From Promethearchaeota archaeon (GTDB lineage: Archaea > Asgardarchaeota > Lokiarchaeia > Sigyniarchaeales > SOKP01), in contig JBHLLU010000006.1 of NCBI GenBank assembly GCA_048938895.1, positions 1 through 64,000 on the forward strand: a stretch of 64,000 nt of DNA, given 5' to 3'. Below the pieces are notes generated by a model. The model was not told the DNA's origin and searched no databases. It was given only the letters and a program-made list of their open reading frames with translations. Shown in pieces: positions 4,415 to 28,576 of this stretch. The first letter of the stretch is position 1. Each line of letters opens with the position of its first letter. The translations under genes were made by a program, and so were the position numbers.

Positions 4415-4640
4415 AGGAAATCATTTATTTTGTTAAAATTTTACCCCATCATTCATTCGTTTTTATTAAAAAGTGACTAAAACTTGGAATTATTTTTTAT
4501 CTAATAACACAGAATAATTCTGCTCAACTTAAATTTAAAAATGCAAAATACCATGTATCTATAAAGGCTTTGTTCTTAAGAATATATTTTGTGCAAATTG
4601 TGTATTTATTAGTCAACAATTTTTTTAGGATGAAATTGAA

Positions 4641-5015
4641 ATGAGTAAAGTAGAAGAAGTAACAAAAATTTTACAGGAACTTGAAGGAAAAGTGTCTGAT
4701 ATAATTGGTTCTGCTGTAATAAGAACAAATGGATTAGTGATTGCTTCAGCATTACCAAGTGAGGCTAATGAAAGGATGATTGCGGCGATGTCAGCAGCTC
4801 TTTTAGGTACATCCAAAAGATCAGCAGAAGCACTCTTTAACGGTAATTTTGTCAGTTTGAACTTGGAACTTGACAAAGGAAACATGTTTCTAATTGGAGC
4901 GGGGCGTGTTATTCTAGTTGCAATAACAAGGAAAGAACCTAATATTGGATTAATTACATTAGAAATGGAAGATACTAGTAAAAAAATAAATGACATATTT
5001 AAACTGGAGGAGTGA
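4641..5015 (+). CDS. roadblock/LC7 (MglB-like) protein
   Basis: GSAVIRTNGLVIASAL..IAAMSAALLG..PNIGLI; AGGATGA RBS upstream. Confidence 0.9.
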   Translation: MSKVEEVTKILQELEGKVSDIIGSAVIRTNGLVIASALPSEANERMIAAMSAALLGTSKRSAEALFNGNFVSLNLELDKGNMFLIGAGRVILVAITRKEPNIGLITLEMEDTSKKINDIFKLEE

Positions 5016-20369: not shown

Positions 20370-21422
20370 TTAAATTGCTATGGTTTTTTTTTGGGAATCC
20401 ATTGCCAGTTTTTTTTTCTTCCTCCGAACCATCTCTACAAACGATTCTACACGCGTAAGTAATCCTGCTTCACCCGAATGTTCATCCATTGTAATTTCTA
20501 AGAAAGGAAGGCCTACAACTTTCATATCTCGCATAATCAATTCGGATATAAGGCTATCAGGACCACAAGCGAAGCTTATAAGAAAGATTACGCCATCTAT
20601 CTCACCACGACCTCTCGTAAGAAAATATCTTATAGATTGCATTATTTCTTCTTCATGCCGCCAATAATTTCTAAGACGTTTGTTTACTATAACAGGTGTT
20701 TTAAAAATTTCTTCAGGTAGATTTTCAATTGTAATTACTTTGACACCTTGATCCTGCAATTTTTTCTGAAAATCTAAATTTATAAAGGTATCAAAAATAT
20801 TGTATGCATGACCGAGAAGCAAAAATCTTAAATCTCCCTTTTGTTTTCTTTTTGGTAATGTAAAAGGTCTGTTTCTTTCCACAAATCTCAAAGCATGATT
20901 GACAGATGCTCCATCTCGTAGGAATCTATGATATTCATCAAAATATTTTTGAGCTTCTCTATAAGCATTTAGAGACTGATTTTGAGTTCGCCCTAACTCC
21001 TTCCCTAACTCAATTGCAGAAGTAGCTACTGGGAATTCCTTGACATTTACTTCAAAATTTAATATTTTGGGGACTCCTGGTAGAATTTTAATAATATCTG
21101 GTAGGGATAAAAATTTTGGACAAAAATATGCCTCTTTTACTTCTGCTACATATCTAGGGACAAAAATATAATCTAAATCAGGATTATCTCGTATTAATTT
21201 TAACACTTGACCATAATAGATCTTTACAGGTATGCACAATTCCCCAAATCCATGCGTTACACCCTCTTCTACTATTTTTTTGTTGGTTGGAGGGCTTAGA
21301 ACAATCTCAACTTCTAATTCTTCAAGTAATTTTTTCCAAAAGGGAAAATATCTGTAGAAGTGAAGTGCTCTAGGTATTCCCACCTTTATTTTTTTCTCGC
21401 TTGCTTGTTTACTTGATTCCAT
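20370..21422 (-). CDS. acyl-CoA dehydratase activase-related protein (DUF2229)
   Basis: VGIPRAL, CIPVK, CPKF, FACGPDS, DEHSGEAGLLTRVESF. Confidence 0.82.
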   Translation of the reverse strand: MESSKQASEKKIKVGIPRALHFYRYFPFWKKLLEELEVEIVLSPPTNKKIVEEGVTHGFGELCIPVKIYYGQVLKLIRDNPDLDYIFVPRYVAEVKEAYFCPKFLSLPDIIKILPGVPKILNFEVNVKEFPVATSAIELGKELGRTQNQSLNAYREAQKYFDEYHRFLRDGASVNHALRFVERNRPFTLPKRKQKGDLRFLLLGHAYNIFDTFINLDFQKKLQDQGVKVITIENLPEEIFKTPVIVNKRLRNYWRHEEEIMQSIRYFLTRGRGEIDGVIFLISFACGPDSLISELIMRDMKVVGLPFLEITMDEHSGEAGLLTRVESFVEMVRRKKKKLAMDSQKKTIAI

Positions 21423-21517: not shown

Positions 21518-22111
21518 TTATAATGCTAGAAAATTTTTTAGTATTTTCATTCCAAAAGGTTTCATCATTATTGACTCTGGATGGAATTGAATACCCTCAA
21601 TTGGATATTGTTTGTGTCGAACAGCCATAATTACTCCATCGTCAGCTGTAGCCGTGATTTTAAGACATTGGGGCAAAATTTCCTGTTTAGCCGCTAAAGA
21701 ATGATACCTAATCCCTAATAACGGGTTAGGAACATTACTAAAAATAGTTTCTTGGTCGTGAAATATTTTAGAAATCTTACCATGCATAGGTCCTACATTT
21801 GCTCGTTCAACATAATCTTTACTTATATCATCTCCAAACGCTTCAACAATCGTTTGATGCCCTAGACAAATTCCAAGTATAGGAACTTTTGAATAAAATT
21901 CTTTTATAATTGAAATCGCAGAGCCAGTGTCATATTTCGGGTGTCCAGGTCCAGGAGAAATTACAATTTTATCCACTGATAAGCTCTTCACATATTCTAG
22001 AGATATACTGTTTTTTTCAACAAAAATATTCGATTTGGGTTCTAACTGACAGAAATAATTTACTAAATTATAAACAAAACTGTCATAATTATTAATAAAA
22101 AGGATGTTCAT
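21518..22111 (-). CDS. trpG: anthranilate synthase component II
   Basis: NYDSFVYNL, SPGPG, GICLGHQ, RYHSL, QFHPES. Confidence 0.95.
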   Translation of the reverse strand: MNILFINNYDSFVYNLVNYFCQLEPKSNIFVEKNSISLEYVKSLSVDKIVISPGPGHPKYDTGSAISIIKEFYSKVPILGICLGHQTIVEAFGDDISKDYVERANVGPMHGKISKIFHDQETIFSNVPNPLLGIRYHSLAAKQEILPQCLKITATADDGVIMAVRHKQYPIEGIQFHPESIMMKPFGMKILKNFLAL

Positions 22112-23604
22112 TATTCTCTCACCTCTGCTATTTTGATTGATTTTATTACGCTATACAATTTATTGTATGTTTCCATGTATTCTTTATCTGGTTGACTATC
22201 TGCAACAATACCACCACCCGCTTGAGCAAAATATTTATCCTTCATTCCAAATAATGTTCTAATAGCTATAGCAAAGGTCATATCACCATTGAAACTAAAA
22301 TAACCCACACCACCGCCATAAGGACCTCGATTTTCTGTTTCTAAATCTTGTATTATTTCCATGGCTCTAAGTTTTGGGGCACCTGAGAGCGTACCTGCAG
22401 GGAACACGCTTTTAAGGACTACATATCCATCTAATGGTGTCTTACTCCTTATTTTACTTACAATATGTTGGACTTTTTGATATTTTTGGATTGTCATTAG
22501 CTCAAAAGTATCAATTGTACCAGGATACGAGACTTTAGCAAGATCATTTCTAGCTAAATCGACTAACATTATATGTTCAGCTTGTTCTTTTGGATCATTT
22601 AATAACATTCTTTCTAATTCTAAATCTTCTTCTGGTGTCTTACCTCTTCTTATGGTTCCAGCAATTGGAACAGTGTTAAGAACATCCTTATCTTTAGATA
22701 TGAGTGCCTCAGGACTACTTCCAATAATTCTTATTTTATCAAAATTCATGCTATACATATATTGCGAAGGGTTTTGAACTCTTAAAACCTCGTAAATCGT
22801 CATTGGGTTTATTTTACTCTCTGTATATAGTCTTCGAGAAATGACTGCTTGGATTATATCACCTGCATAAATATGCTCTTTAGTTTTCTCGATCATTCTT
22901 TCATGAGCGCTCTTACTTGTATTAGATTTAAATCCAGATTCATCGATATCTTCAATATTAAAAGGAAGTTCCTTAACACTCTTCGATTTATGGTTTTTTT
23001 TAAATAGATCTAACTGATATCTAATGTTCTTATCTTTTGAATAATCATCAATGCTATTATCAACCAAAAATAATGAATTAGATTTATGTGAATATACAAG
23101 TGCTTTAGTATAAAGCCCCATTAAGATATCTGGAAAATCACTTGTTGATTTGTACCCAACGAAGGGAGCAACCACATCATAACCTATATATCCAAGCATC
23201 CCTCCATAAAATATATTTCTTGGAAATAGTTCTGTAAAGGGAAGATTTGAATAAGGAGTAAGAGAGCTCAGTGTATCGAGAGCAATCATATTATATTCGA
23301 CGTTATCCTTAAAGGGTAGTGGATTATGAGGTCTTTCCTGCCAAATATCTTTAGATTCTACATACTCCTTAATAGTTTCTCCTCTTGCAGTAGAAATGTC
23401 ATAAATTTTATATCTATTTTCGTTGATTTCCAACATGAAATCGGGTTCTAGTGCAATAAAGCTATAAAGGGTTTTTTTAGTATTTTCTGAAGCAGATTCT
23501 AATAATACATGCTTTCTTAACTCATACTTCTTCACCAAAAATTTATAGAATGCAAAAATATTATCCAATTCTCCTATTTTTTCTATATGAATATCAAATT
23601 CCAT
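22111..23604 (-). CDS. trpE: anthranilate synthase component I
   Basis: LLES, GSSPE, PIAGT, EHIMLVDLARND, FPAGTLSGAPK, AGGGIVADS. Confidence 0.95.
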   Translation of the reverse strand: MEFDIHIEKIGELDNIFAFYKFLVKKYELRKHVLLESASENTKKTLYSFIALEPDFMLEINENRYKIYDISTARGETIKEYVESKDIWQERPHNPLPFKDNVEYNMIALDTLSSLTPYSNLPFTELFPRNIFYGGMLGYIGYDVVAPFVGYKSTSDFPDILMGLYTKALVYSHKSNSLFLVDNSIDDYSKDKNIRYQLDLFKKNHKSKSVKELPFNIEDIDESGFKSNTSKSAHERMIEKTKEHIYAGDIIQAVISRRLYTESKINPMTIYEVLRVQNPSQYMYSMNFDKIRIIGSSPEALISKDKDVLNTVPIAGTIRRGKTPEEDLELERMLLNDPKEQAEHIMLVDLARNDLAKVSYPGTIDTFELMTIQKYQKVQHIVSKIRSKTPLDGYVVLKSVFPAGTLSGAPKLRAMEIIQDLETENRGPYGGGVGYFSFNGDMTFAIAIRTLFGMKDKYFAQAGGGIVADSQPDKEYMETYNKLYSVIKSIKIAEVRE

Positions 23605-23606
23605 AT

Positions 23607-24446
23607 TTAATTCAACCCCTTAATAGCCTTTTTGATACTAGATACAAATTCCACTAAATCTTGTTCCATTTCTTCATAATTATTTAAATTTTTTTTAATT
23701 AAATTAACTATTGCTGACCCTATTATGATACCATCAGCTCCGGCATCTATTATTGTAGTGGCATGTTCCTGCTTAGAAATACCAAAACCAACGAATACAG
23801 GGAGTAGTTTATTTGTTTTTTGCTTCATTCTTTTAATTGTATCTTTTGTAATTTGAGCTACTCTTTCTCGTGCTCCAGTTACTCCCATTACTGATATTAA
23901 ATATATGAATCCTCTCGCAACCTTCAAAATTTTTTCCAATCTATCTTCTGTAGTTGAGGGGGCAATTAGAAAAATTAAGCAAATATTATATTTTTCACAT
24001 AGCTTCAAGGTTAAATTGGCTTCCTCAATAGGTAAATCTCCAATTACAATGCCATCAATACCGCATTCTTTTAAATTTTTAAATGTTATATCAAGAGAAT
24101 CTTCAACGGTATCTGCTCCTTGGATTAGAATATTGTAATAAGTGAGAATAACTATAGGTTTTTCAGTTTTTTCTCTTATATCTTTTATGGCGCGTAATGC
24201 TACTTTTGTATTTATACCTGCATTGAACGCTCTAACATTTGCTTCTTGAATTGTAGGTCCATCTGCTATAGGATCACTGAATGGTAGCCCTATTTCAATA
24301 ATATCTGAATATGGTTCGATTTTTTCAACAAGAACTTTAAATTCGTCAATATTTGGGTCACCCGCAACTAAAAAGGGCATAAAATATTTCTCATCCTTCC
24401 GCTTTTCATCTTTAAATAACTTTAAAATTCTGTTTGAATCGATCAT
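23607..24446 (-). CDS. trpA: tryptophan synthase alpha chain
   Basis: [35 protein letters not shown]. Confidence 0.96.
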
Positions 24447-25654
24447 TTTACCTTAAACTCCATATGTTTTTTTAAAATATCCAAATCCTTAGAACCGCTA
24501 CCAGACAAATTTACAACCACAATGTCTTCTTTATTAAACTCATCCTTTATTTTTTCCAAATATGCTAGAGCATGAGAACTTTCGAGAGCTGGAATAATTC
24601 CCTCTAATAAACATAATTTATTAAATGCCTTTAGGGTTTCTTCATCAGTAGCCTCGCCGACTCTGAGGCGATTAAGTTCTTTTAAGAAGCAATGTTCAGG
24701 ACCGACACCAGGATAATCTAATCCCGCACTTATTGAATGGGTTTCCAATATATTCCCATATTTATTCTGTAATAAATACATCAATGACCCATGAAGCACT
24801 CCTTTTCGTCCTAAACCTAAGGCAATAGAGTGTTTTTCAGTTTCTTTACCCTCCCCAGCTGCCTCAATTCCAATTAATTTAACATCTTTATCATCAATAA
24901 AATCATACATAATTCCAATTGCGTTGCTTCCTCCACCAATGCATGCAATTATATAATTTGGAAGCTTTCCCTCTAATTTTATAATTTGTTTTCTTGTCTC
25001 TTTACCTATAATTCTCTGAAATTCTCTGACTATTAGCGGATAAGGATGTGGGCCAACAACACTTCCCATCAAGTAATGAGTATCATCTACATTAGCGATC
25101 CAATAGCGAAGCCCTTCATTTACAGCGTCTTTTAATGTTTTTGATCCAGACTTAACAGAAATTACTTCTGCACCAAGAAGCTGCATCCTATAAACATTGT
25201 AGGCTTGTCTCTCGATATCAATTTCACCCATAAAAACTTTGGTTTCCATCCCAAAATAAGCTCCAGCTATAGCAGTCGCAAATCCGTGTTGTCCGGCACC
25301 TGTCTCTGCCACAAGTTTTGTTTTTCCTATTTTCTTTGCCAGAAGAGCTTGACCCATAACGTTATTTATCTTATGTGCTCCTCCATGATTTAAGTCTTCT
25401 CGCTTTAAATAAACTTTACATCCAATATATTCACTCAATCTAGCTGCGTAATATAAGGGTGTAGGTCTACCACTGTAATCTTTAAGAATTTGATAATATT
25501 CATTTTGAAATGACTCATTAGGTAGATATTTATGACAAGCTTCTGTTAATTCTTGAAGTGCTGGCATGAGAATTTCGGGTGCAAAAATGCCTCCGAATTC
25601 ACCAAACTTGCCCTGTTCATCAGGATATTTATCTATATAATCCATTTTTATCAT
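24443..25654 (-). CDS. trpB: tryptophan synthase beta chain (TrpB1 type)
   Basis: [50 protein letters not shown]. Confidence 0.97.
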
Positions 25655-26304
25655 ACTCTTGAGTAATTATTTATTTCTTCTATTTTAATCAAAAAATCTT
25701 CTAATTTTTTAAGATCCTTTATACCTTTCTCAGATTCCAAAGCACTACTTACATCTATTCCGTACGGATTTAATTCCCTATAAACCTTTTCAACATTATT
25801 AATATTGATTCCACCAGCAAGGATAATTTTTGCTTTACTATACTTTTTTAAAAATTGTTTTATAAGGTTAAAGTTAAACGCTTTTCCACTACCTTCACTA
25901 TTATCTAATAAAATTCCATAAACATCACCGTAAATTTGATTGATTTGAGTCATAATTTGATTTTTGTTTTTATAGCTTAATTTTATTGCTACAATAATTT
26001 TCATTCTTAAGTTCCTATCAAGCTTCTTTATTTCAACTAATTCAAATTGAGGGTGTATTTGATATAGATCTGCTTCTATATCATTCATTATCTTAATTAA
26101 TTCTGAGATATTTACAGGTTTACAAACAATAACAGTTAAGATATTTTTGTTTACTACTTCAAGGAGTTTTAAGAGTTCCTGTTTTCCTAAATTTCTTGGA
26201 GATTCCGGAACATTATAAATAAAACCTACAGCAAAAGCATCTTTTTCAATGCATAGTTTTATTTCCTCTGATTTTTTCAAACCACAGATTTTTACGAATT
26301 CCAC
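25651..26304 (-). CDS. trpF: phosphoribosylanthranilate isomerase
   Basis: VKICG, SPR, GSGKAF, LAGGI, IDVSS.LE. Confidence 0.93.
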
Positions 26305-27098
26305 TATATTATCCCCCTTAATGACAGAATTTTTTTTTTTATATTTTCAGATTTCATTATAGAAGAACCAATTAAAAAAGCATCTGCTCCATAAGATTGA
26401 AGATATTTAATGTCTTCAAGGGAATTTATTCCACTCTCACTAATTACAATAATATTATCATCAAATAGTCGCTTGATTTCAGGGATTAATACTTCAGAAA
26501 CTGATAAATCAATTTCTAATGTTTTGAGATTTCTATTATTTACTCCAATCAAATTAAGTTTCATTCCAATCTCTTTTAAGTGCTCAATATCTTTGATCTC
26601 TTCAATATTATGTATTTCAATTAATGGTTCCAAATTGAATTCTTGCGCTAACTCTAGCATTTCTTCAAGGTTTCCAAGAAGATTGATAAGTAAGATATTT
26701 GTGGCACCCAAGTCTTGAGCTATCTTAAATTGGGTATCGCAAAAGACAAAATCTTTCATTAAGCACGGGAGATTACTTTCTTCTGACGCTAGATAAAGAT
26801 TTGAAAATGAACCACTAAAATATTTCGGTTCGGTAAGGATACTAAGCCCAATGACTCCAGATTCCTCCATTATATGTACAAGCTCAGGTATATTAATTTC
26901 GTTCCTAATTTCTCCTAGCGTTGGAGATGCTGGTTTAATTTCTGATATAATCGAGATCCCATTGTTTACTTTAATAGCACTACTTAACGATCCCCGATTT
27001 TGGTCTTTTGATTTTTTATCAAGAGCATTCAATTTCTTAAATTGTTGCTCTAACGATTTCTTGCGACTTTCAAGAATTTCAAATAATATATTTGACAT
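26304..27098 (-). CDS. trpC: indole-3-glycerol phosphate synthase
   Basis: EIKPASP, SILTE, KDF, GVNNRNL, SESGI, LIGSSIM. Confidence 0.95.
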   Translation of the reverse strand: MSNILFEILESRKKSLEQQFKKLNALDKKSKDQNRGSLSSAIKVNNGISIISEIKPASPTLGEIRNEINIPELVHIMEESGVIGLSILTEPKYFSGSFSNLYLASEESNLPCLMKDFVFCDTQFKIAQDLGATNILLINLLGNLEEMLELAQEFNLEPLIEIHNIEEIKDIEHLKEIGMKLNLIGVNNRNLKTLEIDLSVSEVLIPEIKRLFDDNIIVISESGINSLEDIKYLQSYGADAFLIGSSIMKSENIKKKILSLRGII

Positions 27099-28183
27099 TA
27101 TTTTTCTAATTTTAGTGAGTTATAATTTTTTCCGCTCGAAACTTGAATAAGTTCCTTAAGAGTGCCCAAAGCTTTTCCAGATTCGATAGAGTCTTTAGCA
27201 ATTGAAACACCTTCTATGAAATCATTTGTTATATTTGCACTTTTTAACGCTAAAGCGGCATTCATTAAAACAGTATTGTATTTTGCTCCATTATCTTCAT
27301 TCTTAAGGATTTTTCTAGCAATTTCCAGATTTTCTTCAAGGCTCCCTGCTAAAAGATCATTTATTGTACAATCAGGAAGGTGAAAATCTTTATTTGTAAT
27401 TGCATAACTTTCAAGAGTGCCATTATTATATTCCGTTATATAATTTATTCCAACTGGTGCTAGTTCATCAATCCCACATGAATTATAAACGGTATACACG
27501 TGTTTTGCTTCTAGATTCTGTAATACTTTTGCCATTATTGGTGCTAAATCTTTATTAAACACACCTAATATATGATATTTGGCATTTGCAGGATTTGTAA
27601 GGGGACCAAGAATATTAAATACTGTTCTTGTCTTGATTTCACGTCTAGTTGGCATCGCATATTTCATAGCTGGATGAAATAAAGGTGCGAACATGAATCC
27701 AAACCCTACTTGTTCAATACAATTTTTGACATTCTCTGGTTCTAAATTAATATTTACTCCTAAACCTTCTAATAGATCCGCACTTCCACAATTGCTAGTT
27801 ACAGCACGATTACCATGTTTAGCGATGGGTACTCCAGAACCTGCAACCACTAAAGCAGAAATTGTGCTTATATTAAATGTTTTAATTTTATCTCCTCCTG
27901 TACCACATGTATCTAATAATTCTCCAATTATTTGGGGTTCAATACAAGTCGCAAACTCTCTCATAATTCGTGCAAAACCAGTAATTTCTTCGTAAGTTTC
28001 TCTTTTCATCTGTAAACCCATTAAAAGTGCACCCAACTGAGCATCAGTCACTTTTCCAGACATTATTTCTCTCATAACATCTTCTGCTTCTTTTATAGAA
28101 AGGGATTCTCTTTTACTTAATTTCTTTAATCCGTTAATTATGTTTTCCTCAGACATTTTAAATCTACTTTTGTTTTCATTCAA
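27098..28183 (-). CDS. trpD: anthranilate phosphoribosyltransferase (start may be ATG 28156)
   Basis: DTCGTGGD, FNIST, AKHGNR, GSADLLE, HPAMK, RTVFNILGPLTNP. Confidence 0.96.
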   Translation of the reverse strand: MNENKSRFKMSEENIINGLKKLSKRESLSIKEAEDVMREIMSGKVTDAQLGALLMGLQMKRETYEEITGFARIMREFATCIEPQIIGELLDTCGTGGDKIKTFNISTISALVVAGSGVPIAKHGNRAVTSNCGSADLLEGLGVNINLEPENVKNCIEQVGFGFMFAPLFHPAMKYAMPTRREIKTRTVFNILGPLTNPANAKYHILGVFNKDLAPIMAKVLQNLEAKHVYTVYNSCGIDELAPVGINYITEYNNGTLESYAITNKDFHLPDCTINDLLAGSLEENLEIARKILKNEDNGAKYNTVLMNAALALKSANITNDFIEGVSIAKDSIESGKALGTLKELIQVSSGKNYNSLKLEK

Positions 28184-28223: not shown

Positions 28224-28352
28224 TCTTAGAATTTCTGATAATCTTAAAAGATGTTTTAAGTCATTGGATTTTCATTAAAATACAAAATGAAAGCGATAGT
28301 GATTACAAATCAGAAAATCTAAGAATTAATTTAAACAATTGAATTAGGCGTT
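28224..28352 (-). promoter_or_regulatory. structured trp leader RNA (candidate attenuator platform)
   Basis: 15/16 inverted repeat 28224-28239/28309-28324 enclosing two 7-bp hairpins (28243-28260 and 28270-28292); AACGCC at 28352-28347 is complementary to the Trp-codon region. Confidence 0.6.
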
Positions 28353-28405
28353 CACACACGCCACCAACACTGCCAACGCCAAGAAAATATTTTTACAGTT
28401 GACAT
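28352..28405 (-). CDS. trpL: Trp-rich leader peptide MSTVKIFSWRWQCWWRV
   Basis: ATG TCA ACT GTA AAA ATA TTT TCT TGG CGT TGG CAG TGT TGG TGG CGT GTG TGA; AGGATGA RBS 8 nt upstream; lies directly before trpD on the same strand. Confidence 0.85.
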   Translation of the reverse strand: MSTVKIFSWRWQCWWRV

Positions 28406-28413
28406 TTATTAAA

Positions 28414-28464
28414 TCATCCTTAAATTATTAGGTTTTAAGATTTGTTAATTTATATACTTTATTT
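28414..28464 (-). promoter_or_regulatory. BRE-TATA promoter and RBS of the trp leader
   Basis: Minus strand reads AAATAAAG-TATATAAA (TATA at 28456-28449), then AGGATGA (28420-28414). Confidence 0.55.
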
Positions 28465-28576
28465 GTTTTTTAGGAAAGAAGAAATTAAATATCCTGATGA
28501 AATTTAGTTAGTGTGAATTCCTAAATCTTTTAATAAAAAATTAAGAGGTTAAAAAATTTTTTTTTGGTTTAGATTC

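Follow-up and report, generated by a model that had tools for sequence, protein, structure and literature searches.

Many tryptophan-biosynthesis genes of the Promethearchaeota (Asgard archaea) are preceded by a short open reading frame (ORF) that ends in a cluster of tryptophan codons. One such ORF lies in a 64,000-nucleotide (nt) stretch of DNA from a Promethearchaeota archaeon (assembly GCA_048938895.1, contig JBHLLU010000006.1, positions 1 to 64,000), which was analysed as a whole and is referred to here as the window. It occupies positions 28352..28405 on the minus strand, ahead of a trp operon, and is accompanied by a promoter, a hairpin and a U-rich tract. ORFs of this kind are rare in the genome, and they are conserved before four kinds of trp gene, namely trpD, trpB2, trpE and trpA. 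Judged from sequence comparison, the best overall explanation is probably a ribosome-sensed tryptophan leader, by which the ribosome would signal to the trp operon how much charged tRNA-Trp is available. Its component parts differ in strength. The ORF very probably encodes a translated leader peptide that senses tryptophan, while the chances that its output is premature termination are about even. From conserved features we infer that the ORF is translated, that ribosomes stall on it, that transcription terminates behind it and which way the system responds, and the leader is best filed as a putative archaeal variant of leader-peptide attenuation controlling several trp transcription units.

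The leader ORF and the trp operon in the window

An earlier, sequence-only reading of this DNA had described a short Trp-rich ORF in front of a trp operon, without stating its strand. The ORF is there as described. It is encoded on the minus strand, from an ATG at 28405-28403 to a TGA at 28354-28352, and comprises 17 sense codons. Four TGG codons fall within a stretch of seven (codons 9-15; positions 28381-79, 28375-73, 28366-64 and 28363-61), and two of them are adjacent. The G-rich island that had been noted in AT-rich surroundings is equally real: positions 28350-28389 have a G+C content of 0.50, with an excess of G on the minus strand, against 0.15-0.25 on both sides and 31% for the genome as a whole.

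NCBIfam scans bear out the trp operon on the same strand (21518..28156), with the gene order trpD (28156-27098), trpC, trpF, trpB, trpA, trpE, trpG. TrpD, TrpB, TrpA and TrpG exceed the curated cut-offs, and TrpC, TrpF and TrpE are the best matches below them. The gap between the ORF and trpD, previously put at about 170-200 nt, is 195 nt when measured to the ATG at 28156, a start common to orthologues, and 168 nt when measured to the first TTG of the trpD open frame.

The rarity of the leader ORF was assessed across the whole genome to which the window belongs (G000; 4.65 Mb, 174 contigs, 98.7% complete), by collecting every ATG-started ORF of 8-45 codons in all six frames. Just four of these 52,710 ORFs have at least four TGG codons among their last ten. 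Two are nested in longer ORFs of 305 and 261 residues. The remaining two are the window leader and an 18-codon ORF on contig C67, located 160 nt upstream of trpB2, a gene whose product is assigned to the TrpB-like enzyme family (TrpB2) by a score of 640 bits (cut-off 366). Among the short ORFs situated between long ORFs, 2 of 6,690 have four Trp codons in an eight-codon window, and both precede Trp-synthesis genes. Since these are the two Trp-densest intergenic short ORFs of the genome, the leader ORF is beyond what chance would be expected to produce. The same set of 6,690 did not bear out the suggestion that His-, Leu-, Thr- or Phe-rich leaders might occur elsewhere. A scan for enrichment of any residue yielded no candidate before a recognisable cognate gene, be it for His, Thr, Leu, Phe, Met or another amino acid, with downstream ORFs judged by eye from their first residues only.

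A promoter can be recognised upstream of the ORF (28449..28470, minus strand), in agreement with the previously proposed transcription factor B recognition element (BRE) and TATA box. It consists of an A-rich, BRE-like stretch followed by the box TATATAAA (28456-28449), 51 nt before the ATG of the ORF. From the usual spacing between TATA box and transcript start in archaea, the transcript is predicted to begin about 20 nt ahead of the leader ATG. Between these points lies the sequence AGGATGA, which had been taken for a ribosome-binding site (RBS). It was located both here (28420-28414, minus strand) and before position 4641 (4627-4633), as claimed; its standing as an RBS is less secure and is considered below. 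The Shine-Dalgarno (SD)-like motif is part of an element at 28409..28420 in which it overlaps a two-codon mini-ORF, ATG-ATT-TAA (28417-28409, minus strand), situated right before the leader ORF. A similar motif, ATG(G/A)TTTA, occurs 5-8 nt ahead of the leader start in many relatives. The mini-ORF and this motif could represent a variant form of the SD, a start-stop element or some other feature.

Conservation and probable coding character of the leaders

Conservation at orthologous loci was one of the points on which the sequence-only reading had made its proposal depend. The proposal withstands this comparison, as 29 of 31 trpD loci carry the element. Within the phylum, trpD is patchily distributed, with 65 of 400 genomes positive (E <= 1e-40), and its upstream DNA was compared wherever the contig extended far enough. 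In named public records, the TrpD loci most similar to that of the window come from metagenome-assembled genomes labelled Promethearchaeota; most of these duplicate contigs already compared and are not independent cases. At trpD loci of the family and order, 27 of 29 have a short ORF with at least two Trp residues in its last ten codons, one of these having a TTG start only. Two further trpD loci of the family both have a Trp-rich leader. In other families in which trpD is the first gene of the operon, a leader is present at L052, L054, L055, L056, L058 and L059. The antisense strand gave no leader match in 35 trpD loci.

Leaders are also found before other tryptophan genes. For trpB2, 40 upstream regions from 13 genera were sampled, and 27 contain an ATG-started ORF that has three or more Trp residues in its last ten codons and stops 133-180 nt short of trpB2; in another three regions, the ORF has two. 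Leaders of 23 codons lie 139-149 nt upstream of trpE (5 loci) and trpA (2 loci). These were located by searching 135 family genomes with a degenerate TGG-repeat pattern, a noisy procedure that gave many coding matches and about 0.5 control matches per genome. The 17 pattern-matched regions that were inspected comprised 7 true leaders and 10 that were coding or unclear. The leader is also carried by the single-contig genomes G033, G038 and G171. Leaders at separate Trp transcription units are the pattern expected of a leader-peptide sensor, and their presence before trpD, trpB2, trpE and trpA supports the earlier claim that this lineage controls its trp genes through a leader peptide or upstream ORF (uORF).

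Outside the phylum, 57 loci from other archaea and bacteria with the next most similar TrpD have no ORF with at least three Trp residues in the 700 nt upstream; most of these loci are trpE-first, which makes them an imperfect control. This absence argues against the leader having arrived together with a bacterial operon.

Several features suggest, indirectly, that these elements are translated. In a nucleotide-repeat test, which presupposes no ORF, TGG repeats were present on the sense strand in 32 of 40 trpB2 upstream regions and on the antisense strand in none of the 40. An in-frame stop codon follows the last TGG within three codons in 30 of the 32 regions (about 22% would be expected by chance, as estimated from base composition), and an in-frame ATG lies 8-24 codons upstream of the repeat in 29 of the 32. 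The 66 leaders compared have ORFs of 14-35 codons (median 18) with two to six Trp codons, the last being 0-3 residues from the stop in 64. The typical ending in relatives is W-x-W-x-W-R-x-stop. The N-terminal parts fall into at least a dozen unrelated sequence types, and the frame is still open. A TATA-like box precedes every leader ORF. It lies about 50 nt ahead of the ATG in the AT-rich family, and in GC-rich relatives a conspicuous TATA box lies about 25-31 nt ahead of it. Because that distance is so short, the leader ORF of the GC-rich relatives may be leaderless.

The hairpin, the U-rich tract and the candidate switch

The end of the ORF coincides with a hairpin. In the window (28347..28362, minus strand), the last Trp and Arg codons supply the 5' arm, GGCGT (28362-58), the stop codon falls within the loop, and ACGCC at 28351-47 makes the 3' arm; the first Trp-Arg codons (28380-75) provide an alternative 5' arm. 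Among the leaders generally, the stop is either in the loop or at the beginning of the 3' arm, which comes immediately behind. This is the arrangement of the first (1:2) hairpin of TrpL-type leaders, in which the stop is enclosed along with the regulatory codons. In 50 of 59 leaders, a contiguous stem that includes three or more G-C pairs has its 3' arm starting at or past the stop; with the 22-nt flank exchanged for random sequence matched to the local composition, the figure is 11.5%. With at least four G-C pairs, the figures are 30 of 59 and 1.9%. The arms comprise 36 different pairs among the 59 leaders. The first 12 nt past the stop have a G+C content of 0.45, which falls to 0.24 further on. 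A crude count of pairs spanning the stop discriminates poorly (93% of leaders, 65% of controls). A CA(A/T)TGG-like box is located 4-14 nt past the stop in 41 of 59 leaders, and many folds show the box paired with a preceding Gln/Arg-Trp codon pair, which lengthens the hairpin.

Behind the hairpin, the window has an A/U-rich tract (28305..28346, minus strand) with a CAATTG motif resembling this box and U runs of at most four (28317-14). It is a candidate site of premature termination, apparently weaker than those of relatives. In the leaders generally, the 25 nt behind the hairpin are 49% T. Runs of five or more T within 60 nt of the stop occur in 35 of 59 leaders and in 32% of 588 control short ORFs, and runs of six or more in 24 of 59 leaders and 14% of controls, an enrichment of about 2-3-fold.

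The likely purpose of the hairpin is suggested by compact leaders in other lineages. At L055 (f33), the Trp codons build the stem, the loop carries the stop and U5 follows directly; L056 (f33) has a similar Trp-codon stem with the stop in its loop, followed by U4. In G171 (trpD and trpB2) and G038 (f2), the leaders end in W-P-W-H-(x-x)-stop, and a stem of about 18 bp, beginning a few nucleotides past the last Trp codon, encloses the stop (predicted energy -19 to -34 kcal/mol); two of these three leaders have T5 located 6-7 nt after the stem. Between the leader ORF and trpD, L054 and L059 have several runs of T5-T7. At L058, the ORF lies 52 nt from trpD, which has a full SD, and this spacer leaves little room for a second promoter. 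In three lineages, then, what appear from sequence to be textbook hairpin and U-run terminators overlap the end of the ORF. It is because of these compact leaders that an attenuator working by direct occlusion is favoured.

In the family, the remainder of the leader is of two structural types. One, common to the leaders of trpB2 and of some trpD genes, consists of a variable hairpin, a stem-loop under strong conservation and, ahead of the SD, another hairpin that covaries. The window trpD leader belongs to the second type, marked by a long-range helix (28224..28324, minus strand) in which 28324-28309 pairs with 28239-28224 at 15 of 16 positions (by eye) and encloses two small hairpins. Equivalents with altered sequence are present at L036, L038, L041, L083, L044, L050 and L084. 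The conserved stem-loop of the first type is near-invariant and palindromic, built around ATTGA(A/T)TTCCAAT, and most of its pairs never vary; on contig C67 of the window's own genome it is situated at approximately L086:783-819, corresponding to columns 153-185 of alignment A1. An RNA hairpin and a DNA operator bound by some regulator are equally possible readings of it.

The effect of a ribosome on these structures was modelled by masked folding, with the footprint positioned over the stop codon or over the first or last of the Trp codons. Masking changes the predicted fold at the hairpin itself and leaves the rest of the leader as before, which suggests that a stalled ribosome decides only whether the hairpin forms. 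Accessibility of the downstream SD and start codon is 0.52, 0.54, 0.52 and 0.51 across the ribosome states (masked partition-function folding, n=51). There is thus no sign in these folds of a bacterial 2:3 antiterminator or of RBS unmasking, and mutually exclusive 2:3 and 3:4 hairpins, as in the TrpL type, were not found by masked folding.

Taken as a direct-occlusion attenuator, the leader would work as follows. The TATA-box promoter would start the transcript about 20 nt ahead of the leader ORF, in which the Trp codons are confined to the last nine. The last Trp and Arg codons would form the 5' arm of the G-C hairpin, with the stop in the loop, the 3' arm just past the ORF and the U-rich tract beyond. 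When tryptophan is plentiful, the ribosome would complete the ORF and depart, the hairpin would fold, and transcription would mostly stop in the U-rich tract before trpD. When tryptophan is scarce, the ribosome would stall at the Trp codons, occupy the 5' arm and keep close behind the polymerase, so that no hairpin would form and transcription would read through into trpD-C-F-B-A-E-G. The same cassette would govern trpB2 in the window genome, as well as trpE and trpA units in relatives, constituting a ribosome-directed Trp regulon. A bolder version, offered tentatively and on balance doubtful, is an archaeal attenuation without antiterminator RNA. Here, the stalled ribosome would directly decide the release of a Pol II-like polymerase at the U tract, possibly via the CPSF73 homologue aCPSF1/FttA, and the promoter-ORF-hairpin cassette would have been copied before trpD, trpB2, trpE and trpA as a 'Trp ribulon' across the Promethearchaeota.

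A number of observations weigh against the attenuator, and some of them against a conserved leader in general. The leader is absent at two of the 31 trpD loci (L046, with just 409 nt of upstream DNA, and L048), at all 16 loci of other families in which trpE-trpG stand ahead of trpD, and in 8-10 of the 40 trpB2 regions; in G032, it was not found within about 1.4 kb upstream of trpB2. Many of the compared loci are close kin, and the counts therefore overstate independent support. The AGGATGA heptamer is not enriched (14 copies in the window, 11.5 expected) and matches only in part the genome's SD consensus GGAGGTGAT, which was derived from upstream hexamers and pentamers; 16S rRNA, sought for its anti-SD sequence, was not found in the window genome assembly. 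The SD evidence for translation of the leader ORF is accordingly weak. Hairpin windows are barely more stable than dinucleotide shuffles (mean z -0.66; a weak -1.35 for the window leader). Exchanging 3' flanks between leaders costs about 2 kcal/mol, the cognate flank being better in 44 of 59. RNAalifold, run on a MAFFT alignment of 31 trpB2 leaders, recovered three hairpin pairs only; the same run returned one conserved stem-loop, with compensatory changes in 4 of 11 pairs. Within the family, a median of 10 nt separates the hairpin from the first T4 run, so the two are not adjacent. The window leader has no U run longer than four, and a scan for bacterial-type promoters and terminators, in which promoter matches are meaningless for an archaeon, gave zero terminators. 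Minimum-free-energy folding under ribosome masking revealed no consistent antiterminator pairing, GC-rich relatives included. Finally, according to the general view, what archaeal termination needs is U tracts, together with aCPSF1/FttA, and not hairpins, so the role given to the hairpin is conjectural. Together, the weak U runs of the window, the non-adjacent T4 runs and the dependence of archaeal termination on U tracts keep alive versions in which the ribosome governs factor access or protects the mRNA.

Such versions retain the ribosome as sensor and change the output: the stalled ribosome might shield the mRNA from 5'-to-3' decay, block access of aCPSF1/FttA past the stop, much as the ribosome stalled on TnaC blocks Rho, or alter translation of the first gene. 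This is possible, if on the unlikely side. The ORF lies at the extreme 5' end of the transcript, the family's U runs are not adjacent to the hairpin and the window leader lacks a strong one, a factor might bind the CA(A/T)TGG box that 41 of 59 leaders have 4-14 nt past the stop, and long structured leaders with conserved helices lie between ORF and gene. Archaeal operons are, moreover, described as tuned by internal terminators (PMC10450193). Against these points stand the plain hairpin and U-run terminators of three lineages and, for the translational version, a mean SD and start accessibility of 0.52 in all states, which rises in 2 and falls in 3 of 51 leaders.

The remaining alternatives deny that codons are being read as a measure of charged tRNA. 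It is improbable that the W-x-W-x-W-R nascent peptide is an arrest peptide sensing free tryptophan in the ribosome, as TnaC does. The motif is more regular than the counting of codons needs (W-x-W in 60 and W-R in 53 of 66 leaders, with W-Q-W-P-W nearly invariant before trpB2), and it always adjoins the stop, yet most of that regularity is explained by hairpin arms made of the same codons. The motif also differs by lineage, with two to six Trp residues either adjacent or spaced, and a Trp-induced stall would need to repress a biosynthetic operon in a way that no structure suggests. Quite improbable, too, is an untranslated repeat that serves as a site for a TRAP-like RNA binder or a DNA transcription factor, with the hairpin as an operator-like inverted repeat. 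TGG triplets 3 nt apart recall TRAP sites, which have that spacing, an A/T-rich, TATA-like sequence stands behind the hairpin, and trpB2 leaders contain a strongly conserved palindromic block. Against this reading stand the in-frame ATG (29 of 32 loci) and near stop (30 of 32), adjacent Trp codons in some leaders and a canonical TATA box upstream of the ORF. The 36 arm pairs change in sequence and stay complementary, which fits RNA rather than a sequence-specific operator, and searches of the 98.7% complete genome returned no gene of the TRAP or TrpR families. The last alternative, and a very improbable one, is a small Trp/Arg-rich peptide acting in its own right, for example in trans or in an antimicrobial-like way, and merely co-expressed with the trp genes. 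Some bacterial leader peptides do act in trans, peTrpL being one (PMC7298713); in the present ORFs, only the Trp positions and the peptide end are conserved while the remainder diverges freely, and four different trp genes are the only ones with which the ORF was found associated.

Other features were noted around these loci. Where 417-505 nt separate leader and trpD in relatives, the gap is occupied by a conserved ORF encoding 80-99 residues (L031:2742-2999; L033:194-445, minus; L035:177-440, minus; L038:2365-2664; L039:2754-2996; L042:1640-1912). It matches no Pfam family at cut-off, no copy was found in the window genome (best E 0.2), and L002 seems to hold a decayed copy. At L005 (G039), about 700 nt upstream of trpD and beyond the trpD leader, a second Trp-containing ORF end is followed by a GC palindrome, and this may be a second leader belonging to a neighbouring gene. 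In the window, the gene upstream of the leader (30244-28577, same strand) ends 172 nt before the leader ORF and encodes an acyltransferase of 555 residues with two 1-acylglycerol-3-phosphate O-acyltransferase domains (TIGR00530, two stretches), a bacterial-type ester-lipid enzyme within an Asgard genome. Directly after trpG, an ORF of 350 residues (20370-21422, minus strand) has no NCBIfam match at E <= 1e-10.

Known regulatory systems and the meaning of the leader

The closest known counterpart is the trp attenuator of the E. coli type, with its trpL leader peptide (Rfam Trp_leader). Both have a short ORF upstream of trp genes with Trp codons a few codons before the stop, both place the Trp codons and stop in the first hairpin (the 1:2 equivalent), and both have a U-rich tract before the first structural gene. 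E. coli trpL even shares the Trp-Arg pair near the end of the peptide. The leaders differ from trpL in that they match no Rfam family, lack a detectable 2:3 antiterminator and separate 3:4 terminator, have an archaeal promoter and polymerase and, in the family, include a long additional structured leader. In Rfam searches, the window leader gave no match under E = 0.85, and four related loci gave none at E <= 1. The leader thus resembles bacterial trp attenuators in its sensor and differs from them in its switch, as alternative hairpins were not found.

The nearest published cases are actinobacterial and mycobacterial. According to Seliverstov et al. 2005 (PMC1262725), actinobacterial trp attenuators have leader peptides with double or triple UGG, a single genome can have separate attenuators ahead of each of two trp operons, a trpB2-A unit among them, and some attenuators are 'incomplete'. 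Those attenuators are bacterial, with GC-rich terminators followed by poly-U as described there, while here the host is an Asgard archaeon and the Trp codons themselves build the hairpin. The mycobacterial 'Cys ribulon' of polycysteine leaderless short ORFs (Canestrari et al., bioRxiv 10.1101/834739) likewise comprises several loci of one pathway whose transcripts each begin with a sensory short ORF, making up a regulon directed by the ribosome, and the GC-rich relatives may share its leaderless arrangement. In the mycobacterial case, stalling of the ribosome releases an RBS that is otherwise sequestered, a step for which masked folding gave no support here. RBS unmasking by a stalled ribosome, as in the mycobacterial Cys short ORFs or the ermC type, was rejected as a candidate on accessibilities of 0.52 (free), 0.52 (stalled) and 0.51 (stop).

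Another parallel is tnaC and Rho, in which TnaC senses free tryptophan and controls tryptophanase; in both cases, a ribosome stalled by the stop codon could shield downstream RNA from a termination factor. Unlike the present leaders, TnaC induces a catabolic operon in response to free tryptophan and combines a conserved Trp with Pro as its last sense codon; nearly all trpD and trpB2 leaders end in non-Pro residues. Control by TRAP found no support either: PF02081 has no match in the window genome (the control matches in Bacillus subtilis), and the leaders contain 2-6 UGG repeats, not 9-11 (G/U)AG. The characterised archaeal trp control is TrpY of Methanothermobacter, a DNA-binding repressor acting at the promoter. 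It shares pathway and domain of life with the present system, in which the conserved element is an ORF with an RNA hairpin. A TrpR family gene was not found in the whole window genome, and TrpY was not searched for.

Leader-peptide attenuation is a textbook bacterial mechanism. In the full-text literature, subscription journals being outside its scope, no paper on an archaeal leader peptide or attenuator was found, and the terms 'attenuation' and 'leader peptide' are absent from a review of archaeal transcription-translation coupling (PMC8116511) and from a 2026 review of termination signals (PMC13675443). A conserved, multi-locus Asgard case would offer a natural, mutable reporter for communication between ribosome and RNA polymerase in archaea in vivo. 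It bears on how archaeal terminators are regulated, and on whether amino-acid sensing by short upstream ORFs predates eukaryotes. If true, an antiterminator-free Trp ribulon would place amino-acid sensing by uORFs in the lineage closest to eukaryotes; a link from the Trp leader to eukaryotic uORF control is an idea at this stage. Leader ORFs of 14-35 codons also represent a type of gene that annotation pipelines skip.

For the organisms themselves, the distribution of the two first genes is informative. In the genus, trpB2 is present in 42 of 53 genomes and trpD in 5 of 53; in the family, 114 of 135 genomes have trpB2, which is usually preceded by its own Trp-rich leader. Many relatives may make tryptophan from salvaged indole only, under the control of tryptophan. 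With trpB2 common and equipped with leaders and trpD rare, indole salvage in this lineage seems to be tuned to the supply of tryptophan.

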